A stretch of 64,000 nt of DNA from Spirochaetota bacterium (GTDB lineage Bacteria > Spirochaetota > Spirochaetia > Treponematales > UBA12059). The notes below the pieces were generated by a model. That model was not told where the DNA came from. It was given only the letters and a program-made list of their open reading frames with translations, and made no database searches. Positions 4,776-62,048 of the stretch are shown one piece after another. The position numbers were made by a program, and so were the translations under genes. Position 1 is the first letter of the stretch; each line of letters starts with the position of its first letter. The DNA is taken from assembly GCA_022703505.1 (NCBI GenBank), contig JAKLDN010000001.1:219389-283388 (forward strand), read 5' to 3'.

Positions 4776-4783
4776 ATGCCGAA

Positions 4784-4988
4784 GGCGCGGATTATCCGGG
4801 GCAGCCGGTCGCGCTGCCGCGCGACCGATCAACCGTGGCGCGCCGCAGGCGCGGATTATCCGGGGCAGCCGGTCGCGCTGCCGCGCGACCGATCAACCGT
4901 GGCGCGCCGCAGGCGCGGATTATCCGGGGCAGCCGGTCGCGCTGCCGCGCGACCGATCTACCGTGGCGCGCCGCAGGCGCGCCACGGT
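4784..4988. repeat. 64-bp tandem repeat, 3.1 copies, ending in a 12-bp-stem hairpin
   Basis: Units at 4784-4847 and 4848-4911 are identical. The unit at 4912-4975 differs by one base (A>T at 4959). Each unit contains the hairpin CGGTCGCGC-TGCC-GCGCGACCG. The terminal hairpin ACCGTGGCGCGC-CGCAG-GCGCGCCACGGT spans 4960-4988. Confidence 0.95.
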
Positions 4989-8533: not shown

Positions 8534-9304
8534 CTAGCTTCCTGGACGGCCGCGGAACCATGCCCGGGCGGCGATCCCGAAGGCCACCCCCAGGTTGAGG
8601 CTGGCCTTGGCTCCCCCCATGGGGATCGACACCCGGTATCGGCACCGGGCCAGGAGGTCCGGGGAAAGCCCGAGCTCCTCGGAACCCACGGCCAGGATCC
8701 CCCGTTCCGGGAAGGTAAAGCCATCCAGGGGCTCCCCGCCCAGCTCCAGGGCCACCAGGGGGCCCAGGCCGTCCAGGTCCGCGAGGGCCGCGCGGCGCCA
8801 GGGTACGGTCCGGGTGGTGCCCATGGCCGACCTCTCGGCCCGGGGATGGCCGGGATCGGCGCAGAAGGGGGACAGGAGGATCTCCGCCACCCCGAAGGCC
8901 TCGGCGCTCCGGAACACGGAACCCACGTTGAAGGGACTCCGCACGTCCTGGAGGTAGACCCGGAAGCCCGGCAGGACCCGGCGGGTCTCCGAGGAAAGCC
9001 CCGAGGCGTCCAGAAAGTCCCAGTCCGCGGCGTCCTTCCCGGTCAATCGGAGCATGTGGTGCCGGGCCTCGTTGCAGGCGCGCCGGGGGTCCTCCTCGAG
9101 CCGCAGGGCCAGGCGGCCCAGGTCCGAGCGTACCTCGGAGGGGACGGCCTCGTCCCGGGCAAGCAGATCTAAAAGGCCCCGGGCGTAGCGCCCGTCGATG
9201 TTCCCCCCGGCGCCCAGGGTCTCCTCCAGGGCCCGGAACTCCAGGGCGGCCTTCCGCAGCCGGTGGGAGGGGGTGAGGGTGGAGAGCTTGTGGAGGGGGA
9301 TCAT
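8534..9304 (-). CDS. SpoU/TrmH-family RNA 2'-O-methyltransferase
   Basis: SPOUT C-terminal motifs are present: ILAVGSEELGLSPDLL and IPMGGAKASLNLGVAFGIA. Confidence 0.8.
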   Translation of the reverse strand: MIPLHKLSTLTPSHRLRKAALEFRALEETLGAGGNIDGRYARGLLDLLARDEAVPSEVRSDLGRLALRLEEDPRRACNEARHHMLRLTGKDAADWDFLDASGLSSETRRVLPGFRVYLQDVRSPFNVGSVFRSAEAFGVAEILLSPFCADPGHPRAERSAMGTTRTVPWRRAALADLDGLGPLVALELGGEPLDGFTFPERGILAVGSEELGLSPDLLARCRYRVSIPMGGAKASLNLGVAFGIAARAWFRGRPGS

Positions 9305-9311
9305 GGGAGAA

Positions 9312-9445
9312 GGTGAACAGTGAATAGTGAATAGTGAATAGGTGACTCGATCGTCCTGGTTGATCTTCTCACCATAGCAAGAAGTCTTTCTCCATGCCTT
9401 AAATCAGTTCCACTATTCACCAATTTACCCATTCACCAATTCACG
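9312..9445. repeat. inverted GTGAAT hepta/octamer arrays (locus A)
   Basis: The left arm at 9312-9346 reads GGTGAACAGTGAATAGTGAATAGTGAATAGGTGAC. The right arm at 9408-9445 is its approximate reverse complement (CACTATTCACCAATTTACCCATTCACCAATTCACG). Confidence 0.85.
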
Positions 9446-9451
9446 TTCCCA

Positions 9452-10603
9452 TCAATACGCCGTCTTCATCATGTCGAACACGTCGTCGGTGGACACGGTG
9501 CGGGGCAGGTGGTTGGTCATGTCCAGGGTGCGGGCGTGCTCCGCGGTCTCCACCAGGCGCTCCAGTTCCAGGTCGAAGTCCTTGAGGCGGCTGGGGATCT
9601 TGAGGAGCCCCAATCGGGTGCGCACGGACTCCACGGCCTTGACCGCGGACTCGGCGGTGGTAAGTTCGGACACGTCCTCTCCCAGGAGGGGGGCCAGGGC
9701 GGCCACCTTCTCCAGCCGGCTCTTGGAGGCCCATTCCAGCATGTAGGGCAGGACCACCGCGGCCAGGCTGGCCTTGGGCACCTGGAACCGGGCGTTCAGG
9801 GCCAGGACCACCGCGGTCCCCAGGCCCAGGGAGCTGGAGGCCAGGCCGGCCCCGGTCAGGAAGGAGGCCCGGAGGGCGTCCGCCCGGACCGCCGGATCGT
9901 CCGGCCGGGTCTGGAAGGCGTCCACGCAGGAGGCGGCCAGGGCCACCGCCCGCTCCAGGAGCACGTCGGAGTAGAAGTTGGCCCGGGCGGACACGAAGCC
10001 CTCGATGGCCTGGAGCAGGACGTCCAGCATGCAGGCCGCCGCGGCCTTGGGGAAGAGCCCCGTGGACATCGAGGGGTCGAGGATCACGGCCCGGGTCGTC
10101 CCGGGAGAGGCGGCCAGGACCCGGGCCCGCCGGCCCCGGGCGTCCGTCAGGGCGCACTCGTCGGTGAGTAGGAAGGGATCCCGGTAGGTGGTGGGTACGG
10201 AGATGTACGGAAGCGGGCGGCAGGTCGGGGGAGTTCCGTCGATCCAGTCGTCCAGGGAGGCCGTCCCTGCGGCCGAGGCGGCCACCGCCCGGGCCGCGGA
10301 CAGGACTCGGACCCCGCCCAGGCCCACGACCCCGTTGGCCCGGGCCCCCCGGGCCAGGCGGAGGATGTCCTCCGCGGAGGCGGTGGTGGCGCCGTCCGGG
10401 ATTTCGTCGAACAGGATGGCCTTGGAGCCCCGATCCTCCAGGAGGGCCAGGACCCGGTCCACCGCCCGGGCCTCGTGGAGCATGGGATCCGCGACCACCA
10501 GGACGCGGTCCGAGCCGTAGGACGCAAGCAGGCTGGGAAGCTTGAGTAGGGTGTCCGGCCCCATGTAGGTTTCCGCGGGGACACGGAATCGGAAGTCTGC
10601 CAT
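9452..10603 (-). CDS. iron-containing (group III) alcohol dehydrogenase family protein
   Basis: This 383-aa ORF has the family layout: VLVVADP, GLGGVRVLSAARAV, and a C-terminal helical domain. Confidence 0.75.
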   Translation of the reverse strand: MADFRFRVPAETYMGPDTLLKLPSLLASYGSDRVLVVADPMLHEARAVDRVLALLEDRGSKAILFDEIPDGATTASAEDILRLARGARANGVVGLGGVRVLSAARAVAASAAGTASLDDWIDGTPPTCRPLPYISVPTTYRDPFLLTDECALTDARGRRARVLAASPGTTRAVILDPSMSTGLFPKAAAACMLDVLLQAIEGFVSARANFYSDVLLERAVALAASCVDAFQTRPDDPAVRADALRASFLTGAGLASSSLGLGTAVVLALNARFQVPKASLAAVVLPYMLEWASKSRLEKVAALAPLLGEDVSELTTAESAVKAVESVRTRLGLLKIPSRLKDFDLELERLVETAEHARTLDMTNHLPRTVSTDDVFDMMKTAY

Positions 10604-11019: not shown

Positions 11020-11700
11020 TTATGCGTTTTTACCGCCGTATACAAGTACCGAGAACTCCCCCTGCACCTTTTCCCGGGATTCCAGGGCCGAACAGACCTC
11101 CCCGGGCGTCCCGGCCATGTACTCCTCGAAGGCCTTGGTCATCTCCCGGCCGGCGAAGACCCGGCACTCCGGATCCAGGTCGGCCAGGTCCAAAAGGAGT
11201 TTCAGGATCCGGTGGGGGGACTCGTAGACCACGAAGGCCTCCCCCCGGGCCAGGAGCTCCGCCAGCCGGGAGCGCCGTCGGCCCGGCTTCGGGGAGAGGA
11301 AGCCCTCGAAGAGGACGGATTTCACGGGAAGCCCCGAGGCGGACAGGAGGCAGGCGAAGGCCGAGGGCCCCGGTACGGGGACTACGTCGTGCCCCCCCTC
11401 CCGGGCCAGGGCGGCCGCCCGGGCCCCGGGATCGCTCAGGGCGGGAGTCCCCGCGTCGGAGCAGTAGGCCACGTCCTTGCCGGAGTCCAGGAGCCCCAGG
11501 ATCCTGCGGGCCCCCTTCTCCTCCTCGTAGGCGTAGCACGCGACCAGGGGCTTGCGTATCCCGAAATGGGTCAGGAGCTTCAGGGTGTGGCGGGTGTCCT
11601 CGCAGGCCACGGTATCCACGGACTTGAGGACCTCCAGGGCCCGGAGGGTGATGTCCTGGAGGTTACCGATGGGGGTGGCCACCATGTACAGCGTCGCCAT
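11020..11700 (-). CDS. rsmI: 16S rRNA (cytidine1402-2'-O)-methyltransferase RsmI
   Basis: The start MATLYMVATPIGNLQDITLRALEVL is the tetrapyrrole-methylase-fold RsmI N-terminus. The ATG at 11700 is chosen because the track ORF extension translates the repeat array. Confidence 0.9.
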   Translation of the reverse strand: MATLYMVATPIGNLQDITLRALEVLKSVDTVACEDTRHTLKLLTHFGIRKPLVACYAYEEEKGARRILGLLDSGKDVAYCSDAGTPALSDPGARAAALAREGGHDVVPVPGPSAFACLLSASGLPVKSVLFEGFLSPKPGRRRSRLAELLARGEAFVVYESPHRILKLLLDLADLDPECRVFAGREMTKAFEEYMAGTPGEVCSALESREKVQGEFSVLVYGGKNA

Positions 11701-11723
11701 GGGGGGAGTATAGCGGTTGGAAA

Positions 11724-11828
11724 GGTGAATAGTGAATAGTGAATAGGTGAATAGAGGGGCCACCCATTCACCCATTCACCCATTCACCCATTCACCCATT
11801 CACCCATTTACCTATTCACCTATTCACC
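11724..11828. repeat. inverted GTGAAT hepta/octamer arrays (locus B) between divergent genes
   Basis: The left arm at 11724-11754 has 4 units of GTGAATAG. The loop is AGGGGC. The right arm at 11761-11828 has 8 units of CCCATTCA / CCTATTCA, the reverse complement motif. Confidence 0.95.
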
Positions 11829-11849
11829 TTCCACGATATACTTCCCCCG

Positions 11850-12248
11850 ATGGACATCCTCCTGCGCGCCACCATCTACATCTCGGTCGCCGTCATCCTG
11901 CTGTGGATGTTCCTGGGCCTCTTCGGCCCGTACCGGCGGCGCCGGACCCTCCTCAAGGCGGGGGACAAGGCCGCGACGGAGGACCTGCCCCGGACCTGCC
12001 CCCTCTGCGGCGAGGTCCTGTCGCCGGGGCAGAGGGTCAAGACCCGGGTGAACCCGGGCCAAGGGGACAAGCTCATGCAGATCTTCGGCTGTCCCCACTG
12101 CTACCCCCCCAACATTGAATGCAAGCGGATCTGTCCGGTCTGCGAGAAGGAAGTCCCCCGGCAGGGCTACGTGATCGCCCGGCTCTTCGAGCATCCCGGC
12201 CGCAAGCACGTCCACGTCCTGGGGTGCTCGGGCTGCCGGAACACGTGA
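11850..12248 (+). CDS. small membrane-anchored Cys-rich (4x CxxC) zinc-ribbon protein, function unknown
   Basis: The 132-aa ORF has an N-terminal TM segment (IYISVAVILLWMFLGLF) followed by CPLC, CPHC, CPVC and CSGC. Confidence 0.6.
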   Translation: MDILLRATIYISVAVILLWMFLGLFGPYRRRRTLLKAGDKAATEDLPRTCPLCGEVLSPGQRVKTRVNPGQGDKLMQIFGCPHCYPPNIECKRICPVCEKEVPRQGYVIARLFEHPGRKHVHVLGCSGCRNT

Positions 12249-22647: not shown

Positions 22648-22685
22648 CCGTTCACTTTCCACTGTCCACCGTCCACAGTCCACGG
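22648..22685. repeat. GTCCAC/TTCAC heptamer array (locus E) abutting a TATACT -10 box upstream of hppA
   Basis: The sequence CCGTTCACTTTCCACTGTCCACCGTCCACAGTCCACGG is immediately followed by TATACT at 22686-22691. Confidence 0.8.
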
Positions 22686-22751
22686 TATACTACCCCCGCG
22701 CCCGGGGAAGTCGACTCCGGGGCGATACACCAACGACGAAGGAGAGAAGCC

Positions 22752-26288: not shown

Positions 26289-26432
26289 GAGTTTGTCGGG
26301 CTTGTCCACCTAAATAGTAAAAAAATCGCATTTGTGCGATTTTTCTACCTTGCAAACTCCAAAGGAGCCGTATAATCGGGATTTTTAGCGCCTATCGGCG
26401 CTAAAAATCCACAAGTCCGACAGGCTCCCTAG
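26285..26432. mobile_element. composite of two CTAG-bounded hairpin elements (subfamily 2 forward, subfamily 1 reverse), MITE/REP-like
   Basis: 26285-26360 has GGAGTTTG...CAAACTCC outer pairing and an AAAATCGCA-TTTG-TGCGATTTT core. 26364-26432 is the reverse complement of the element seen at 44511 and 62045. Confidence 0.8.
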
Positions 26433-32417: not shown

Positions 32418-32491
32418 TTCCCCGTCGGCTTTCCGTCCCTCCGTCCACCGGTTTCCCTGCCCTCGCGCCCGCCTGGGATTCACGTCTCCGC

Positions 32492-44514: not shown

Positions 44515-44581
44515 GAGCCTGTCGGACTTGTGGATTTTTAGCACCGATAGGCGCTAAAAATCCCGATTATTCGGCTCCTAG
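44511..44581. mobile_element. CTAG-bounded hairpin element (subfamily 1), followed by a 5' fragment of subfamily 2 (44578-44597)
   Basis: CTAG-GAGCCTGTCGGACTTGTGGATTTTTAGCACC-GATA-GGCGCTAAAAATCCCGATTATTCGGCTC-CTAG. The first CTAG contains the recG stop. Confidence 0.8.
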
Positions 44582-44608
44582 GAGTTTGTCGCGGGCGCCG
44601 ACTCGGGC

Positions 44609-45856: not shown

Positions 45857-45988
45857 GTGAATTGGTGAATTGTGAATAGGTGAATGGGAATGAAAGGTTG
45901 AGGAGCGAAGCCATGTCCGGGCATGCCTTCTGCCTGTCCAACCCCATTCACCCATTTACATATTCACCTATTCACCTAAGTATTCACC
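45857..45988. repeat. inverted GTGAAT hepta/octamer arrays (locus C)
   Basis: The left arm at 45857-45895 reads GTGAATTGGTGAATTGTGAATAGGTGAATGGGAATGAAA. The right arm at 45943-45988 reads CCCATTCACCCATTTACATATTCACCTATTCACC..TATTCACC and overlaps the efp stop. Confidence 0.85.
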
Positions 45989-58386: not shown

Positions 58387-59310
58387 ATGCCTACGGTACG
58401 GGAATTCCTGGAAAAAATCAAGTTCGACGGCCCGGTGAGCTACGGCGAGCCCATGTCGGGGCGCACGACCTTCCGGATCGGGGGCCCCGCGGACGCCCTC
58501 GCCGAGCCCCGGACCCGGGAATCCCTGGCCGCCCTGCTCTCCGCCGCCCGCTCGGAGGGCCTGCCCGTCTTCCTCCTGGGGGGCGGGGCCAACCTCCTGG
58601 TTCGGGACGGAGGGATCCGGGGCCTCGTGGTCTCGACCCGGGGGCTGGCGGGGCTTCGGATCACGGAGGCGGGGATCGAGGCGGAGGCCGGGGTGCCCGT
58701 CACGGACCTCGTAGGCGCGGCCGCGGAGGCGGGCCTGTCGGGCCTGGAGTTCGCGGCGGGCCTGCCGGGTTCCGTGGGAGGGGCCGTCTACATGAACGCC
58801 CGGTGCTACGAGCGGGAGTTCGCGGACCTCATGACCCGGGTGGACTACCTGGACTCTCGGGGGAATTTAGGCTCCCTGGTCCCGGCCAAGGGCGAATGGG
58901 CCTACAAGAGCACCCCCTTCATGCCGGGCGGGCTCCAGTCCGGCTCCGTGGTCCTGGGCGCGGAATTCCGCCTGAGACCCGGGGAAAAACCCGCCATCCT
59001 CTCCCGGATGCGGGAACTGGAGGCGGACCGGGCCGCCAAGGGGCACTTCGACTTCCCCTGCGCAGGCAGCGTCTTCAAGAACGACCGCCGCTTCGGCCGG
59101 CCCACGGGCAGGATCCTGGACGAGCTGGGCTTCCGGGGCCGCGCCTTGGGCACCGCGGCGGTCTCGGAAAAGCACGCCAACATCTTCGTGAATCCCGGCT
59201 CCGCCACCGCCGCGGACATGCTCGCCCTTATTGAGCAGGCCCGCCGGGAAGCCCGGGAGCGGTACGGTTACGAGCTGGAGACGGAGGTGGTCATAGTCGG
59301 TGAACCGTGA
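58387..59310 (+). CDS. murB: UDP-N-acetylenolpyruvoylglucosamine reductase
   Basis: The FAD-binding PCMH domain has TFRIGGPA and LGGGANLL. The C-terminal part has AGSVFKN. Confidence 0.9.
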   Translation: MPTVREFLEKIKFDGPVSYGEPMSGRTTFRIGGPADALAEPRTRESLAALLSAARSEGLPVFLLGGGANLLVRDGGIRGLVVSTRGLAGLRITEAGIEAEAGVPVTDLVGAAAEAGLSGLEFAAGLPGSVGGAVYMNARCYEREFADLMTRVDYLDSRGNLGSLVPAKGEWAYKSTPFMPGGLQSGSVVLGAEFRLRPGEKPAILSRMRELEADRAAKGHFDFPCAGSVFKNDRRFGRPTGRILDELGFRGRALGTAAVSEKHANIFVNPGSATAADMLALIEQARREARERYGYELETEVVIVGEP

Positions 59311-59435
59311 ACGGTGAACATAGGACAGTGGACGGGAAGGTGCGACCGTAACCCGCCGCATTCCGCGCCGATGCGTGGAACTCGGCCGCGTTCGTGTGCC
59401 GCTTCCGTCCACTGACCACCGTCCACCGTTTACAG
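59299..59435. repeat. inverted GTGAAC/GTGGAC heptamer arrays (locus D)
   Basis: The left arm at 59299-59336 reads GGTGAACCGTGAACGGTGAACATAGGACAGTGGACGG and overlaps the murB stop. The right arm at 59405-59435 reads CCGTCCACTGACCACCGTCCACCGTTTACAG. Confidence 0.8.
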
Positions 59436-59471
59436 CTTGCGTTCCCCGCTATCTCGCATTAGCATATACAT

Positions 59472-62048
59472 ATGGACCTCACGCTTCCCGTCACCGACCC
59501 GGTCGGCGTCTTTTTTATTCTCTTCGCCGCCCTCTTCGCGGCCCCCATCCTGGCGGAACTGGTCCGACTGCCCGGACTGGTGGGGACGGTGCTCGCGGGA
59601 ATGCTCCTGGGACCCCACGCCCTGGGACTGCTCGACGCCGGCGCCTTCCTGGAAACCCTGGGAGGCTTCGGCCTTCTGTACATCTTCTTCACCGCGGGAC
59701 TGGAGCTCGACCTCCGCAAGCTTCGCCGGAAATCCGCCGACGCCGTCGTCTTCGGGGGGCTGACCTTCCTGATCCCCCTCGGGCTGGGGTACGCGGCGGG
59801 GATCCTGGTGTTCGGCCTGCCCGTGGTGCCCGCCGTCCTGTTCGGAAGCCTCTTCGCCTCCCACACGATGCTGCCCTATCCCATCGTCCAGGCGATGGGC
59901 CTGTCCGGAAGCCGGGCGGTGTACGCCTCCGTCGGGGCCACGACGATAACGGACATCCTGGCCATGTTGGCCCTGGCCCTCACGACCGCCGGTTCCGGTC
60001 CGGGCTGGGAGTTCTGGCTCAAGACCCTGGGGATCCTCACCGCCTGGACCGTCGGGGCGGCCCTGCTCCTGCCGCCGCTCATCAGCCGGTTCTTCCGGCG
60101 GATCAAGTCCGGTGGGTCTTCTGAGTTCCTCTTCGCCCTGGCGGTGGCCTTCTTCTGCTCCGCCGCCGCGGCCCTGGCCGGGATCGAGCCGGCCGTGGGA
60201 GCCTTCGCCGCGGGCATCCTCCTGAACCGCCACATTCCCGAGCGCAGCGGCCTCATGTCCCTGCTCAAGTTCGCCGGGGATGCCCTGTTCATCCCCCTGT
60301 GCGTGCTGTACATAGGCGTCCTCACCGATGCGAGGGCCCTGCTCACGGACGGGCGCATGGCCGCCCTCGCCGCGGTCATGCTGGGGGTGGTGCTGGTCTC
60401 CAAGTACGCCTCCTCCCTCTTCCTCAAGCCCCTGTTCGGCTTCTCCCTGGGGGAGGTGAACATCTCCTTCGGGCTTTCCGTCAACCAGACGGCGTCCACC
60501 CTGGCCGCCGCCCTGGTCGGGTATCGGCTGGGACTGCTCGGGGAGGCCGTCTTGAACGGGACGGTGGTCATGTTCATCGTGACCTGCGCCCTGGGACCCT
60601 TCGTCACCCGAAGGGCCGCGTCCGCCCTGGCGGTGGAATCCACCCGGGGGCAGGCGGGACCCGGGCTCACGGGGGAGCGGATCCTGATCGCGGTCTCCAA
60701 TCCCGGCACCCTCCGCCCCTTGACGGACTTCGCGTTCCTGATGCGGGACCCGAAGTCTCCGGAGCCGGTCCTGCCGGTCTGCGTGGTCCAGGACTCGCCC
60801 AACGCGGACCGGGACCTGGAGCAGGCCGAGACGGTCCTGGCCCAGGCCATCGCCCAGGGCGTGGCCGAGGGAGTCCCGGTCAAGCCCTCCACCCGGGTCA
60901 GCCTCAACGCGGCGGAAGGCATCCTGCAGGCCGCCGAGGACCAGGAGGCCACGACGGTGCTGGTGGGATGGAACCGCCCGCCCCGGCCGTCGGGGGCCAT
61001 CTTCGGGGACGTCATCGACCAGGTGGTGGCGGGAGGCCGCCACCTGACCGTCGTGGCCCGCCTGCGCAGGCCCCTGCCGGAGTCACCTTCCCTGGTCCTG
61101 GTGGTCCCGCCCTTCGCGGAGAGGAATCCCGGAGCGGCCCGGGCCTACGCCCTCATGCGGCGGATCCTGGGCGGCGTTCCCGCCAAGCTCACGGTGTTGA
61201 CCCTGGCCTCCGACTCCTCCGGGGTCCGCGATTCCCTGCGGCGCATCCGGGGAGCGGCTCCCCACATCCAGGAGCTGGAATCCTGGAAGGAATTCTCCGG
61301 TGCGATCGCCAAGCAGCCCGAGGGAACCGCCTTCCTCTTCCTCTGTCCCCGGCCGGGACGCCTGGCCTGGCATCCCTACCTGGAACAGCTGCCCCGGGAC
61401 GCGGCCGAGGCCTTCCCGGACTCGACCCTGATGGTGACCTACCTTCCGGACGAAGGAGGCGGCGCGGAGAACTACCCGGCCGCGGCCGCGGAGTCCGTCT
61501 CGGGTCCGGCCGGGGAGGCGGCCGGCCCCGCTGCGGAAGGCACGACGCCCGCGCCGGCTCCGGCCGCCGAGGGGATACCCGAGCCCGCTGCTCCTCCCGA
61601 CTCCTCGGACCTCTTCTATCGGACCCTGGCCGGGTCCGGCCGGGTCATCCCCGACTTGCCCGCGGCGGCCGTGGTGGACGCCGTCCGGATCCTCCTGGAA
61701 CGGGGGTTCCCGGGCGACCGGAGGAGCGTGAACCGCCTGACCGGGATCTACGCGGAGATAGCCCAGAAACAGCCCATCGAGCTGGCCCCCGGAGTCCTCC
61801 TCCTGCACGCCCACGTGGACAATATCGAGGAGCCCCGCATCCTGATCGGAGCCAAGCCCGCGGGACTCCGTCTGCTGGCCCTGGAGGAGCCCATCCGGAT
61901 CGTGGTCCTGCTCTGCGCGCCGAGTTCCCAGTCCCCGGAGGACCACCTCCGGACCCTTTCCCTGATCGCCCAGGCCCTGAAGCGCCCGGAACGGGTGGCC
62001 CGGATCCTGGCCGCCAAGACCGAGGAGGATCTCCGGGAAGACTCCTAG
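59472..62048 (+). CDS. CPA2-family cation:proton antiporter fused to a Usp-like region and a C-terminal PTS EIIA(type 2) domain
   Basis: The N-terminal 380 aa or so form a Na_H_exchanger-type membrane domain. The C-terminal part has LLLHAHV and IRIVVLLCAP, characteristic of EIIA-Ntr/Fru-type domains. Confidence 0.85.
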   Translation: MDLTLPVTDPVGVFFILFAALFAAPILAELVRLPGLVGTVLAGMLLGPHALGLLDAGAFLETLGGFGLLYIFFTAGLELDLRKLRRKSADAVVFGGLTFLIPLGLGYAAGILVFGLPVVPAVLFGSLFASHTMLPYPIVQAMGLSGSRAVYASVGATTITDILAMLALALTTAGSGPGWEFWLKTLGILTAWTVGAALLLPPLISRFFRRIKSGGSSEFLFALAVAFFCSAAAALAGIEPAVGAFAAGILLNRHIPERSGLMSLLKFAGDALFIPLCVLYIGVLTDARALLTDGRMAALAAVMLGVVLVSKYASSLFLKPLFGFSLGEVNISFGLSVNQTASTLAAALVGYRLGLLGEAVLNGTVVMFIVTCALGPFVTRRAASALAVESTRGQAGPGLTGERILIAVSNPGTLRPLTDFAFLMRDPKSPEPVLPVCVVQDSPNADRDLEQAETVLAQAIAQGVAEGVPVKPSTRVSLNAAEGILQAAEDQEATTVLVGWNRPPRPSGAIFGDVIDQVVAGGRHLTVVARLRRPLPESPSLVLVVPPFAERNPGAARAYALMRRILGGVPAKLTVLTLASDSSGVRDSLRRIRGAAPHIQELESWKEFSGAIAKQPEGTAFLFLCPRPGRLAWHPYLEQLPRDAAEAFPDSTLMVTYLPDEGGGAENYPAAAAESVSGPAGEAAGPAAEGTTPAPAPAAEGIPEPAAPPDSSDLFYRTLAGSGRVIPDLPAAAVVDAVRILLERGFPGDRRSVNRLTGIYAEIAQKQPIELAPGVLLLHAHVDNIEEPRILIGAKPAGLRLLALEEPIRIVVLLCAPSSQSPEDHLRTLSLIAQALKRPERVARILAAKTEEDLREDS

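Follow-up and report, generated by a model that had tools for sequence, protein, structure and literature searches.

Records of tandem heptanucleotide repeats in bacteria go back to about 1990, and to our knowledge no origin or function has been agreed for them. The short tandemly repeated repetitive (STRR) heptamers of cyanobacteria, CCCCAGT, TTGGTCA, and CAACAGT, are described mainly as direct arrays, and we know of no account of how the intervening sequences (IVSs) of 23S rRNA originated and spread. In Xanthomonas, arrays of GGGAATC occupy ~185 sites, with 70 to 75 in inverted pairs, and keep their position while varying in length (Rehm et al. 2015; PMC4692102); Nostoc has few inverted heptamer pairs (PMC4692102). 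The 23S rRNA IVS of Coxiella carries an open reading frame (ORF) of the PF05635 family, and GACAGAT heptamers are repeated in tandem in its stem, which RNase III cuts at the first of these repeats (PMC4990558). Here we describe arrays of the unit GTGRAY and its complement RTYCAC in a 64-kb stretch of DNA from a Spirochaetota bacterium (the window, meaning that whole stretch). The Xanthomonas inverted pairs, the cyanobacterial STRR heptamers, and the IVS stems are the closest known systems; inverted heptamer arrays are a known class, and what is new is a spirochaete family whose unit is unable to form G-quadruplexes. We read the window arrays as gene-less, evolutionarily mobile palindromic elements with proposed roles in RNA and at promoters, and we put the probability of this whole reading at roughly 0.5, with most of that weight on what the elements are and less on their RNA function.

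Heptamer arrays occupy five loci in the 64 kb, labeled A, B, C, and D for the inverted pairs plus a single array at 22650-22683, and all lie in intergenic gaps (Table 1). On a rough gene map they fall in 5 of about 12 intergenic gaps longer than 100 nt, and no array in the window lies inside a gene except where arms reach the last codons of efp and murB; a further 20 kb outside the window gave none. There were 10 matches to the phased pattern GTGAAYN{1,2}GTGRAYN{1,2}GTGRAY, whereas 100 shuffles that preserved dinucleotides gave a mean of 0.00, and every arm was reported by Tandem Repeats Finder (TRF), with a period of 7 or 8 and 2.9 to 8.5 copies. The elements are 42 to 48% G+C, compared with 69% for the window, and a gap of 140 to 160 nt between two genes is filled by one element. 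An earlier note on this DNA had described forward GTGAAT/GTGAAC/GTGGAC arrays with complementary second arrays at A, C, and D, and both the sequences and the coordinates read as it described, with a TRF period of 7 to 8. To these we add an inverted pair between divergent genes (11725-11754 / 11761-11828, locus B) and the clear single array at 22650-22683. The solitary right-arm-like segment that the note saw at 32433-32451 contains one GTCCAC and two imperfect 8-mers and was not reported by TRF, so we did not count it as an array. The note's wider proposal of a genome-wide element family holds for dispersed, intergenic, inverted arrays of short tandem repeats that are comparable to STRRs and recur in relatives; as to scale, the scan covers the window and 20 kb beyond it.

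The arm order is the same throughout the four inverted pairs, GTGRAY before RTYCAC, so that RTYCAC units read outward on both strands. The arms are complementary at 79 to 92% of positions over 12 to 29 nt without gaps, the centers between them are 10 to 71 nt long, and each whole element is predicted to fold as one long imperfect hairpin on either strand (dG of -43 to -81 kcal/mol, z scores of -3.7 to -7.6). At A and B the flanks extend the inverted repeat. The centers had been called nonrepetitive, but they are in fact partly palindromic: C holds an internal palindrome, and D pairs almost to a 4-nt loop. At Rfam gathering thresholds no known RNA family, rRNA included, was found anywhere in the window. 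A resemblance of the unit to the DnaA box (TATTCAC versus TTATNCACA) was considered and dismissed, given the many loci and the wrong period. As a separate observation, a T-for-C variant unit (ATTTAC or GTTTAC) occurs in the right arm, on the plus strand, of all four inverted pairs regardless of the direction of neighboring genes; this placement may reflect a strand-specific C-to-T mutation bias.

Genes identical to those of the window were found in two NCBI metagenome-assembled genomes (MAGs) and in anaerobic-digester metagenomes, and by the names of its closest EF-P and MurB homologues the organism belongs to Spirochaetota, near Rectinemataceae and Treponema. Within one species, the D element is identical in six samples, with no copy-number variation there. 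Sister species, with ~87% identity in flanking DNA (~13% diverged), carry other contents at the same sites. At locus A in one of them (L127, with an alcohol dehydrogenase [ADH] of 91% amino acid identity), both arms consist of GTGGAC/GTCCAC units around a center unrelated to that of the window, and in another (L128) the site is occupied by (AGGACTC)x10. In that contig, at least 10 perfect AGGACTC heptamers fill L128:3145-3222 in the ADH-trmH gap, starting 1 nt after the ADH stop codon, and the contig ends soon after, hiding any partner arm. At locus B, both L127 and L128 have one GTGGAC array abutting a -10 element (TATAC(T)), with only one unit opposite and no hairpin. Locus C is absent from L129, where a 32-nt spacer follows an EF-P gene of 90% identity, and also from L130. 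L132 and L133 retain locus D with other unit numbers (4 to 6 units) and hairpin z scores of -4.3 and -5.7, and in L134 it has decayed (z score of +1.0).

The D center is inverted relative to its orthologous centers (L132:6785-6850 and L133:10941-11008) while the arms are in place. Local alignment of the centers scored 29 and 31 for the reverse complement compared with 9 and 16 for the same orientation, against a null maximum of 13 to 17, and BLAST returned 90% identity over 61 nt on the opposite strand. The element at locus A of L127, for its part, resembles the D-type element (center score of 15, P of ~0.005; whole-element alignment score of 41), a likeness that is no more than suggestive, since 15 pairs were compared and whole-element scores are inflated by the arms. 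Altogether, the sites are stable within species, while between species their contents are gained, lost, replaced, resized, and flipped, both arms together.

A scan of one genome per species for three ATTCAC units with 1- to 2-nt spacers returned at least 120 loci; the counts from it given here and below are among the matches listed. Arrays were found in Bacteroidota, Acidobacteriota, Chloroflexota, Cyanobacteria, Proteobacteria, Planctomycetota, Nitrospirota, and other groups. When the unit was defined loosely, 23 loci had GTGAAT..ATTCAC pairs within 600 nt and 1 had the reversed order; with exact hexamers this polarity was, among the matches listed, 18:1 in genomes and 20:1 in viral contigs. 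The composition-matched control CATCTA produced 72 arrays and 0 pairs, and the control ACTTAC, among the matches listed, produced arrays together with a single repeated family whose pairs occur in either order. Since control hexamers make arrays too, tandem arrays are nothing unusual; what only particular units show is pairing with fixed polarity. One idea for the cause of the polarity was the stop codons built into GTGAATN arrays, which read TGA in each of the three frames, but it does not apply generally: stops are lacking in GGGAATC and in several units of the PF05635 cassettes described below.

Different heptamers can also be nested in mirror image, as in L085, where GACGTGAG lies outside GTGAATA, and in the acidobacterial locus L079, where TTTGGTC/AAAGACC lies inside GTGAATN arms. 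An arrangement of this kind, with unrelated heptamers in mirrored order, is better explained by pairing than by the binding site of one protein. A low-GC lineage (L147, L150, and L196) has several copies per contig, with GTGAATG arms around a conserved center of ~70 to 75 nt, in both orientations; by their sequences these elements are a family resembling MITEs (miniature inverted-repeat transposable elements). In L150, the centers of copy 1 and copy 2 lie in opposite orientations on one contig. Around arrays in the scan, a long ORF ended in or at the GTGRAY-sense arm for 40% of arrays, compared with 6% in the background, and gene starts and gene ends were about equally frequent at the outer flank. 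Orientation relative to the downstream start codon, which the earlier note had proposed as a check, accordingly follows no general rule: there is no preference for gene starts over gene ends.

Arrays of this kind also surround genes of the PF05635 family. In a Mesorhizobium contig (L025, 1098-1546), GTGAAT/ATTCAC arms enclose an ORF of this family (23S rRNA-intervening sequence protein, E value of 1.5e-33), and in a Terriglobia MAG (L026, 3100-3700) a PF05635 gene lies between GGTCCTT and AAGGACC arrays; among the matches listed, these were the only cross-phylum loci with such an ORF. Together with ten plasmid-borne genes (L135 to L144, from Cyanobacteria, Gemmatimonadota, Alphaproteobacteria, and Bacteroidota), we examined 12 PF05635 genes, and all 12 have arrays of a 7- to 8-nt unit on both sides. 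For 9 of the 10 plasmid genes the arrays upstream and downstream are plain complements; the exception, L138, has a direct array downstream and the complementary array further upstream. Each gene has a unit of its own, for example GGGTGTG, GACAGGT, AAGGGAA, GGAGATAA, or GGGCAGGA, and several of the genes lie within cas operons (cas6-cas4, cas10-cmr3). In most of these cassettes the upstream arm is rich in purines and looks like a Shine-Dalgarno sequence. Beyond the Coxiella IVS paper, we found no literature stating a general association between PF05635 and heptamer arrays, in a coverage of the literature that was incomplete and is not proof of novelty. The window elements share the architecture of the PF05635 cassettes but not the gene, and since they hold no PF05635 ORF they are not gene cassettes.

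In the window, the elements are set closely between genes. The neighbors are an iron-containing ADH (Fe-ADH) and a SpoU/TrmH methylase at A, EF-P and an MTS-type methyltransferase at C, and MurB and a Na/H exchanger at D, which agrees with the placement given by the earlier note (A between ADH and trmH, C between efp and the methyltransferase gene, D between murB and the antiporter gene) and with its gene identities. On the minus strand the left arm of A reads as RTTCAC toward the trmH start at 9304, 8 nt away, and the right arm ends 6 nt short of the Fe-ADH stop codon (9452-9454, minus strand). The left arm of C likewise reads on the minus strand as ATTCAC toward the methyltransferase start (45832). 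The note had also seen arms overlapping the last codons of efp and murB, and the stop and final codons of both genes do lie within arrays: the efp stop (45976-45978, minus strand) is within the right arm of C, whose last unit (45982-45987) provides the Val-Asn codons GTG AAT, and the murB stop TGA (59308-59310) is within the left arm of D, whose first unit provides the Gly-Glu-Pro codons (GGT GAA C). The EF-P C terminus ERVN is conserved in 120 homologues, including those of relatives that lack the element, and the MurB C terminus VGEP is conserved in homologues, so we regard GTGAAY at the ends of efp and murB as native coding sequence. Downstream of ADH, efp, and murB, the distance from stop codon to hairpin is 0 to 7 nt.

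Among the window arrays, only those of locus B form consensus-like promoters in which an array unit serves as the -35 box, and they do so on both sides (Table 1). Each TATACT at B lies 6 to 7 nt ahead of an ATG, which implies leaderless mRNAs. As far as the start codons, the sequence of one B promoter mirrors that of the other (11701-11715 versus 11834-11848). Several genes of the window appear to be leaderless, with a TATACT or TAGCAT -10 box 6 to 7 nt before the ATG, often followed by a run of C (TATACT-NCCCCC-ATG). The 22650 array runs directly into GTATACT (TATACT at 22686-22691), and the right arm of D ends ~10 nt upstream of TTGCGT-N17-TAGCAT-N6-ATG, a promoter-like sequence identified by inspection before the antiporter gene, which is more conserved among relatives than the D element itself. 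At A (8 nt), at C, and at locus A of L127 (5 nt), the stretch from arm to start codon shows no -10 element, and the promoter scan gave no promoter-like site at C, D, or 22650 under its criteria. No T-run stands behind any of the arms or hairpins, and the search for terminator-like sites gave none at the arrays, so the arrays are not intrinsic terminators. Intrinsic (Rho-independent) termination was ruled out on this ground together with the AT-richness of the arms and the presence of coding or promoter sequence immediately after them.

The reading of the arrays as gene-less palindromic elements draws on their fixed polarity, covarying arms, mirrored nesting, flipped centers, presence and absence between relatives, replacement at the same site, and multicopy families elsewhere. 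As judged from these sequence comparisons, it is most likely that the elements move or are exchanged in evolution and that their arms, by interacting, maintain them. They could spread or be replaced by copy-and-paste or by ectopic conversion, with the arrays as homology, and the GTGAAY codons native to the efp and murB ends might be landing sites or seeds. Array length would change by strand slippage, while the arms would be held complementary through pairing within the element, whether by hairpin or cruciform template switching or by recombination, and the same process would flip the center. A, C, and D would be read through from the upstream gene, giving an imperfect RNA duplex of 30 to 45 bp at 0 to 7 nt after the stop codon; by analogy to the Coxiella IVS, this duplex would be a likely substrate of RNase III and a 3'-end processing or stability element rather than a terminator. 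Transcribed elements are probably double-stranded RNA sites of processing or stability. Where arms abut promoters (B, 22650, and D), outward RTYCAC units may have been co-opted as -35 or upstream promoter DNA.

It is possible, if doubtful, that the relationship to PF05635 goes further and that gene-less inverted heptamer arrays are the nonautonomous form of a cross-phylum mobile hairpin cassette, whose full form contains a PF05635 gene (an S23p/Avd-like four-helix-bundle protein) and is the same entity as the 23S rRNA IVS. If so, STRR-type repeats, IVSs, and the "four helix bundle protein" genes scattered in operons would be one phenomenon; spread would depend on the heptamer arms and might use an RNA or hairpin intermediate together with an Avd-like protein, which would explain the fixed polarity.

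Several observations weigh against the mobile-element reading or parts of it. With a profile built from 10 family members, neither the window nor the relatives' loci yielded a PF05635 ORF; the 20 kb beyond the window had none either, and no transposase was found with the window's own copies. The centers of A, C, and D are not shared (alignment P > 0.3), and inspection of the 10 to 12 nt outside each of their arms revealed no direct repeat that would indicate a target-site duplication. The case for mobility in this genome is built on comparison between species and on one modest similarity (P of ~0.005 before correction, 15 comparisons). The polarity of the arms is not accounted for by a hairpin alone. 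Furthermore, the 22650 array, and locus B in relatives, are single-armed and have no hairpin, so arm pairing is not obligatory. With respect to RNA function, the leaderless starts place B upstream of both transcription starts, where it may be untranscribed. The sense strand folds better at A, the two strands fold equally at C, and the antisense strand folds better at D; a G-U bias was tried as a sign of RNA-level selection, and with no consistent sense-strand advantage in the folding energies, nothing points specifically to such selection.

The arrays might instead be neutral, nonmobile microsatellites without function, produced by replication slippage and hairpin-templated repair in AT-rich intergenic DNA. 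We consider this unlikely, although it would readily accommodate the fast turnover of unit sequence and number, the loss of elements without visible consequence (L129 and L134), the absence of a sense-strand folding bias, and the many tandem arrays that control hexamers form in viral contigs. It would also fit the known over-representation of heptamer simple sequence repeats in bacteria, as cited in PMC4692102. What such an origin would leave unexplained is the strong polarity (18:1 and 20:1 among the matches listed), the joint change of both arms at locus A, the retention of D with its hairpin in three species, the multicopy elements with conserved centers in another lineage, the arrays flanking 12 of 12 PF05635 genes examined, and the tight packing of the elements against stop and start codons. 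In the model of the earlier note, the stem could terminate or process the upstream transcript, and the distal arm would serve the downstream promoter. The position of the hairpins 0 to 7 nt after the ADH, efp, and murB stops, the consensus-like -35 boxes drawn from B array units, and the conserved promoter-like sequence after the D arm would all suit this model. As a terminator, however, the stem fails for want of a T-run or any terminator-like site, though a role in processing is plausible; as a promoter, the distal arm is consensus-like only at B, which is outside the three loci that the note discussed, and is promoter-like by inspection at D, but not at A or C. With no -10 between arm and start at A (8 nt) or in L127 (5 nt), no promoter-like site from the scan at C, D, or 22650, and no preference for gene starts over gene ends across phyla, we regard the model as very improbable.

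The other alternative is a protein. The omega repressor, a ribbon-helix-helix protein, binds runs of WATCACW in direct and converging orientation, and ATTCACT is one position away from AATCACT. On this model, the arrays would be operator or centromere-like sites for a heptad-reading protein that regulates adjacent promoters. Their contiguous units with a 7- to 8-bp period, the B arrays that cover the -35 regions of two divergent promoters, the single arrays that abut TATAC(T) at 22650 and at B in L127 and L128, the unit types common to loci within one genome, and a fixed polarity that suits an oriented binding site are all compatible with it. Yet one site is GTGAAT, GTGGAC, or AGGACTC in species that are ~13% diverged in flanking DNA, GTGAAT and GTGGAC are both used in one genome, and half of the arms face the 3' ends of genes, where no promoter is needed. 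The mirrored unrelated heptamers in other phyla, together with the separate unit of each PF05635 cassette, fit pairing better, and no candidate protein has been identified, a search for a cognate protein having formed no part of the analysis. Altogether, we find a heptad-binding protein quite unlikely, and continue to favor gene-less mobile elements.

Other features of the region are distinct from the heptamer arrays. A second, unrelated repeat is a hairpin, TTTAGCGCCTATCGGCGCTAAA, with conserved flanks GGATTTTTAGCGCC...AAAAATCC and ACAAGTCCGACA; it has no Rfam match, and its copy at 26350 is preceded by a promoter-like site, TTGCAA-N17-TATAAT. An intergenic gap at 4778-4981 holds a 64-bp unit repeated 3.2 times at 98% identity, and the copy of this region in an NCBI MAG (L457:6898-7001) has a run of N in its place, which marks the repeat as hard to assemble. 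Just beyond the left end of the window, genes for a phage integrase, a capsid protein, and a prohead protease lie next to a sulfate-transporter gene (L457:12225-17952), which suggests a prophage or phage remnant.

Table 1. Arrays, promoters, and other features of the window, with positions counted from its first nucleotide
Feature	Position	Strand	Details
Locus A, inverted pair	9313-9445		
Locus A, GTGRAY-sense arm	9313-9346	.	GTGAACA, GTGAATA x3, G GTGAC; TRF period 7, 4.1 copies, 95% matches
Locus A, center	9347-9407	.	61 nt, partly self-pairing
Locus A, RTYCAC-sense arm	9408-9445	.	ATTCACCA, ATTTACCC, ATTCACCA, ATTCAC; TRF period 8, 3.8 copies
Locus B, inverted pair	11725-11828		
Locus B, GTGAAT arm	11725-11754	.	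4 units
Locus B, ATTCAC arm	11761-11828	.	8.5 units of CACCCATT
Locus B, left promoter	11736-11707	minus	TTCACT-18-TATACT; array unit as -35-like box, before TP_methylase
Locus B, right promoter	11815-11842	+	TTCACC-16-TATACT; array unit as -35-like box, before 132-aa gene
Single array without partner	22650-22683	+	GTTCACT, TTCCACT, GTCCACC, GTCCACA, GTCCAC; TRF period 7, 4.4 copies
Locus C, inverted pair	45857-45987		
Locus C, GTGAAT arm	45857-45890	.	4 units, period 7-8
Locus C, center	45891-45942	.	52 nt, internal palindrome GAAGCCATG..CATGCCTTC
Locus C, ATTCAC arm	45943-45987	.	5 RTTYAC units
Locus D, inverted pair	59299-59435		
Locus D, GTGAAC/GTGGAC arm	59299-59336	.	GTGAAC x3 + GTGGAC
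Locus D, center	59337-59404	.	68 nt, almost fully self-pairing
Locus D, GTCCAC arm	59405-59435	.	GTCCAC, GACCAC, GTCCAC, GTTTAC
T-for-C variant units	9424-9429, 11806-11811, 45954-45959, 59428-59433	+	right arms
-10 boxes of apparently leaderless genes	11707-11712, 11837-11842, 22686-22691, 59457-59462		
TP_methylase gene	ATG at 11700	minus	downstream of locus B left arm
132-aa gene	ATG at 11850		downstream of locus B right arm
H+-pyrophosphatase gene			downstream of 22650 array
Antiporter gene	ATG at 59472		downstream of locus D right arm
TTTAGCGCCTATCGGCGCTAAA hairpin repeat, copies	26350-26422, 44519-44594, 62062-62107		copies at 26350 and 44519 mutually reverse complement

The window offers a clean, small case of a repeat class that has been vague, with few and well-delimited elements and with replacement, loss, unit turnover, and center inversion at the same sites in sister species, and the survey makes that class specifically testable. 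Relative to the published work that we found, the advances are the strict polarity of arms across phyla, the replacement of unit type at orthologous sites, and the presence of arrays around every PF05635 gene examined. For annotation, it is relevant that gene boundaries can owe a stop codon, a -35 box, or a long stem of double-stranded RNA to such arrays.

Compared with known systems, the window elements come close to the Xanthomonas GGGAATC arrays in being tandem 7-nt units in intergenic DNA at many loci, with convergent inverted pairs, and both keep their position between related species while varying in length and sequence. They differ in unit and host: GTGRAY, as GTGAAT, GTGAAC, or GTGGAC, has no run of three G's and occurs here in a high-GC spirochaete, so the G-quadruplex reading proposed for Xanthomonas is not applicable, and the unit sequence itself differs between sister species at one site. 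Cyanobacterial STRRs are likewise short tandem heptamers dispersed in intergenic DNA, with different unit sequences and mainly in direct arrays, whereas the window has inverted pairs; the two meet at L079, where STRR2-like TTTGGTC units are nested inside GTGAAT arms. With the 23S rRNA IVS and the PF05635 cassettes, the window elements share a long stem formed from inverted termini with tandem heptamers, and their arms pair in predicted folds. The PF05635 cassettes sit inside transcription units, one such place being between cas6 and cas4. Unlike the IVSs, the window elements contain no ORF and lie between protein-coding genes rather than in helix 25 or 45 of 23S rRNA, and since they have no ORF and are not in rRNA, they are not IVSs.

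MITEs and the repetitive extragenic palindromes (REPs) and bacterial interspersed mosaic elements (BIMEs) resemble the window elements in being small, noncoding, palindromic, located between genes, and present or absent between relatives. The terminal inverted repeats of a MITE have a counterpart here, but as tandem arrays rather than as a unique sequence. Since the window copies lack a target-site duplication and a shared core, they are not MITEs by the usual criteria, although multiple copies with a conserved center do occur in L147, L150, and L196, and we know of no partner transposase for heptamer-array elements. From the GC-rich REPs they differ in being AT-rich. Finally, the omega heptad operators of inc18 plasmids are also contiguous 7-bp units over promoters, in direct and converging orientation, and the window unit is one base from WATCACW; here, however, the arms are 10 to 70 nt apart, lie at the 3' ends of genes as well, and have a unit that is not conserved between sister species, and, unlike the omega operators, the window heptads have no cognate protein that we know of.

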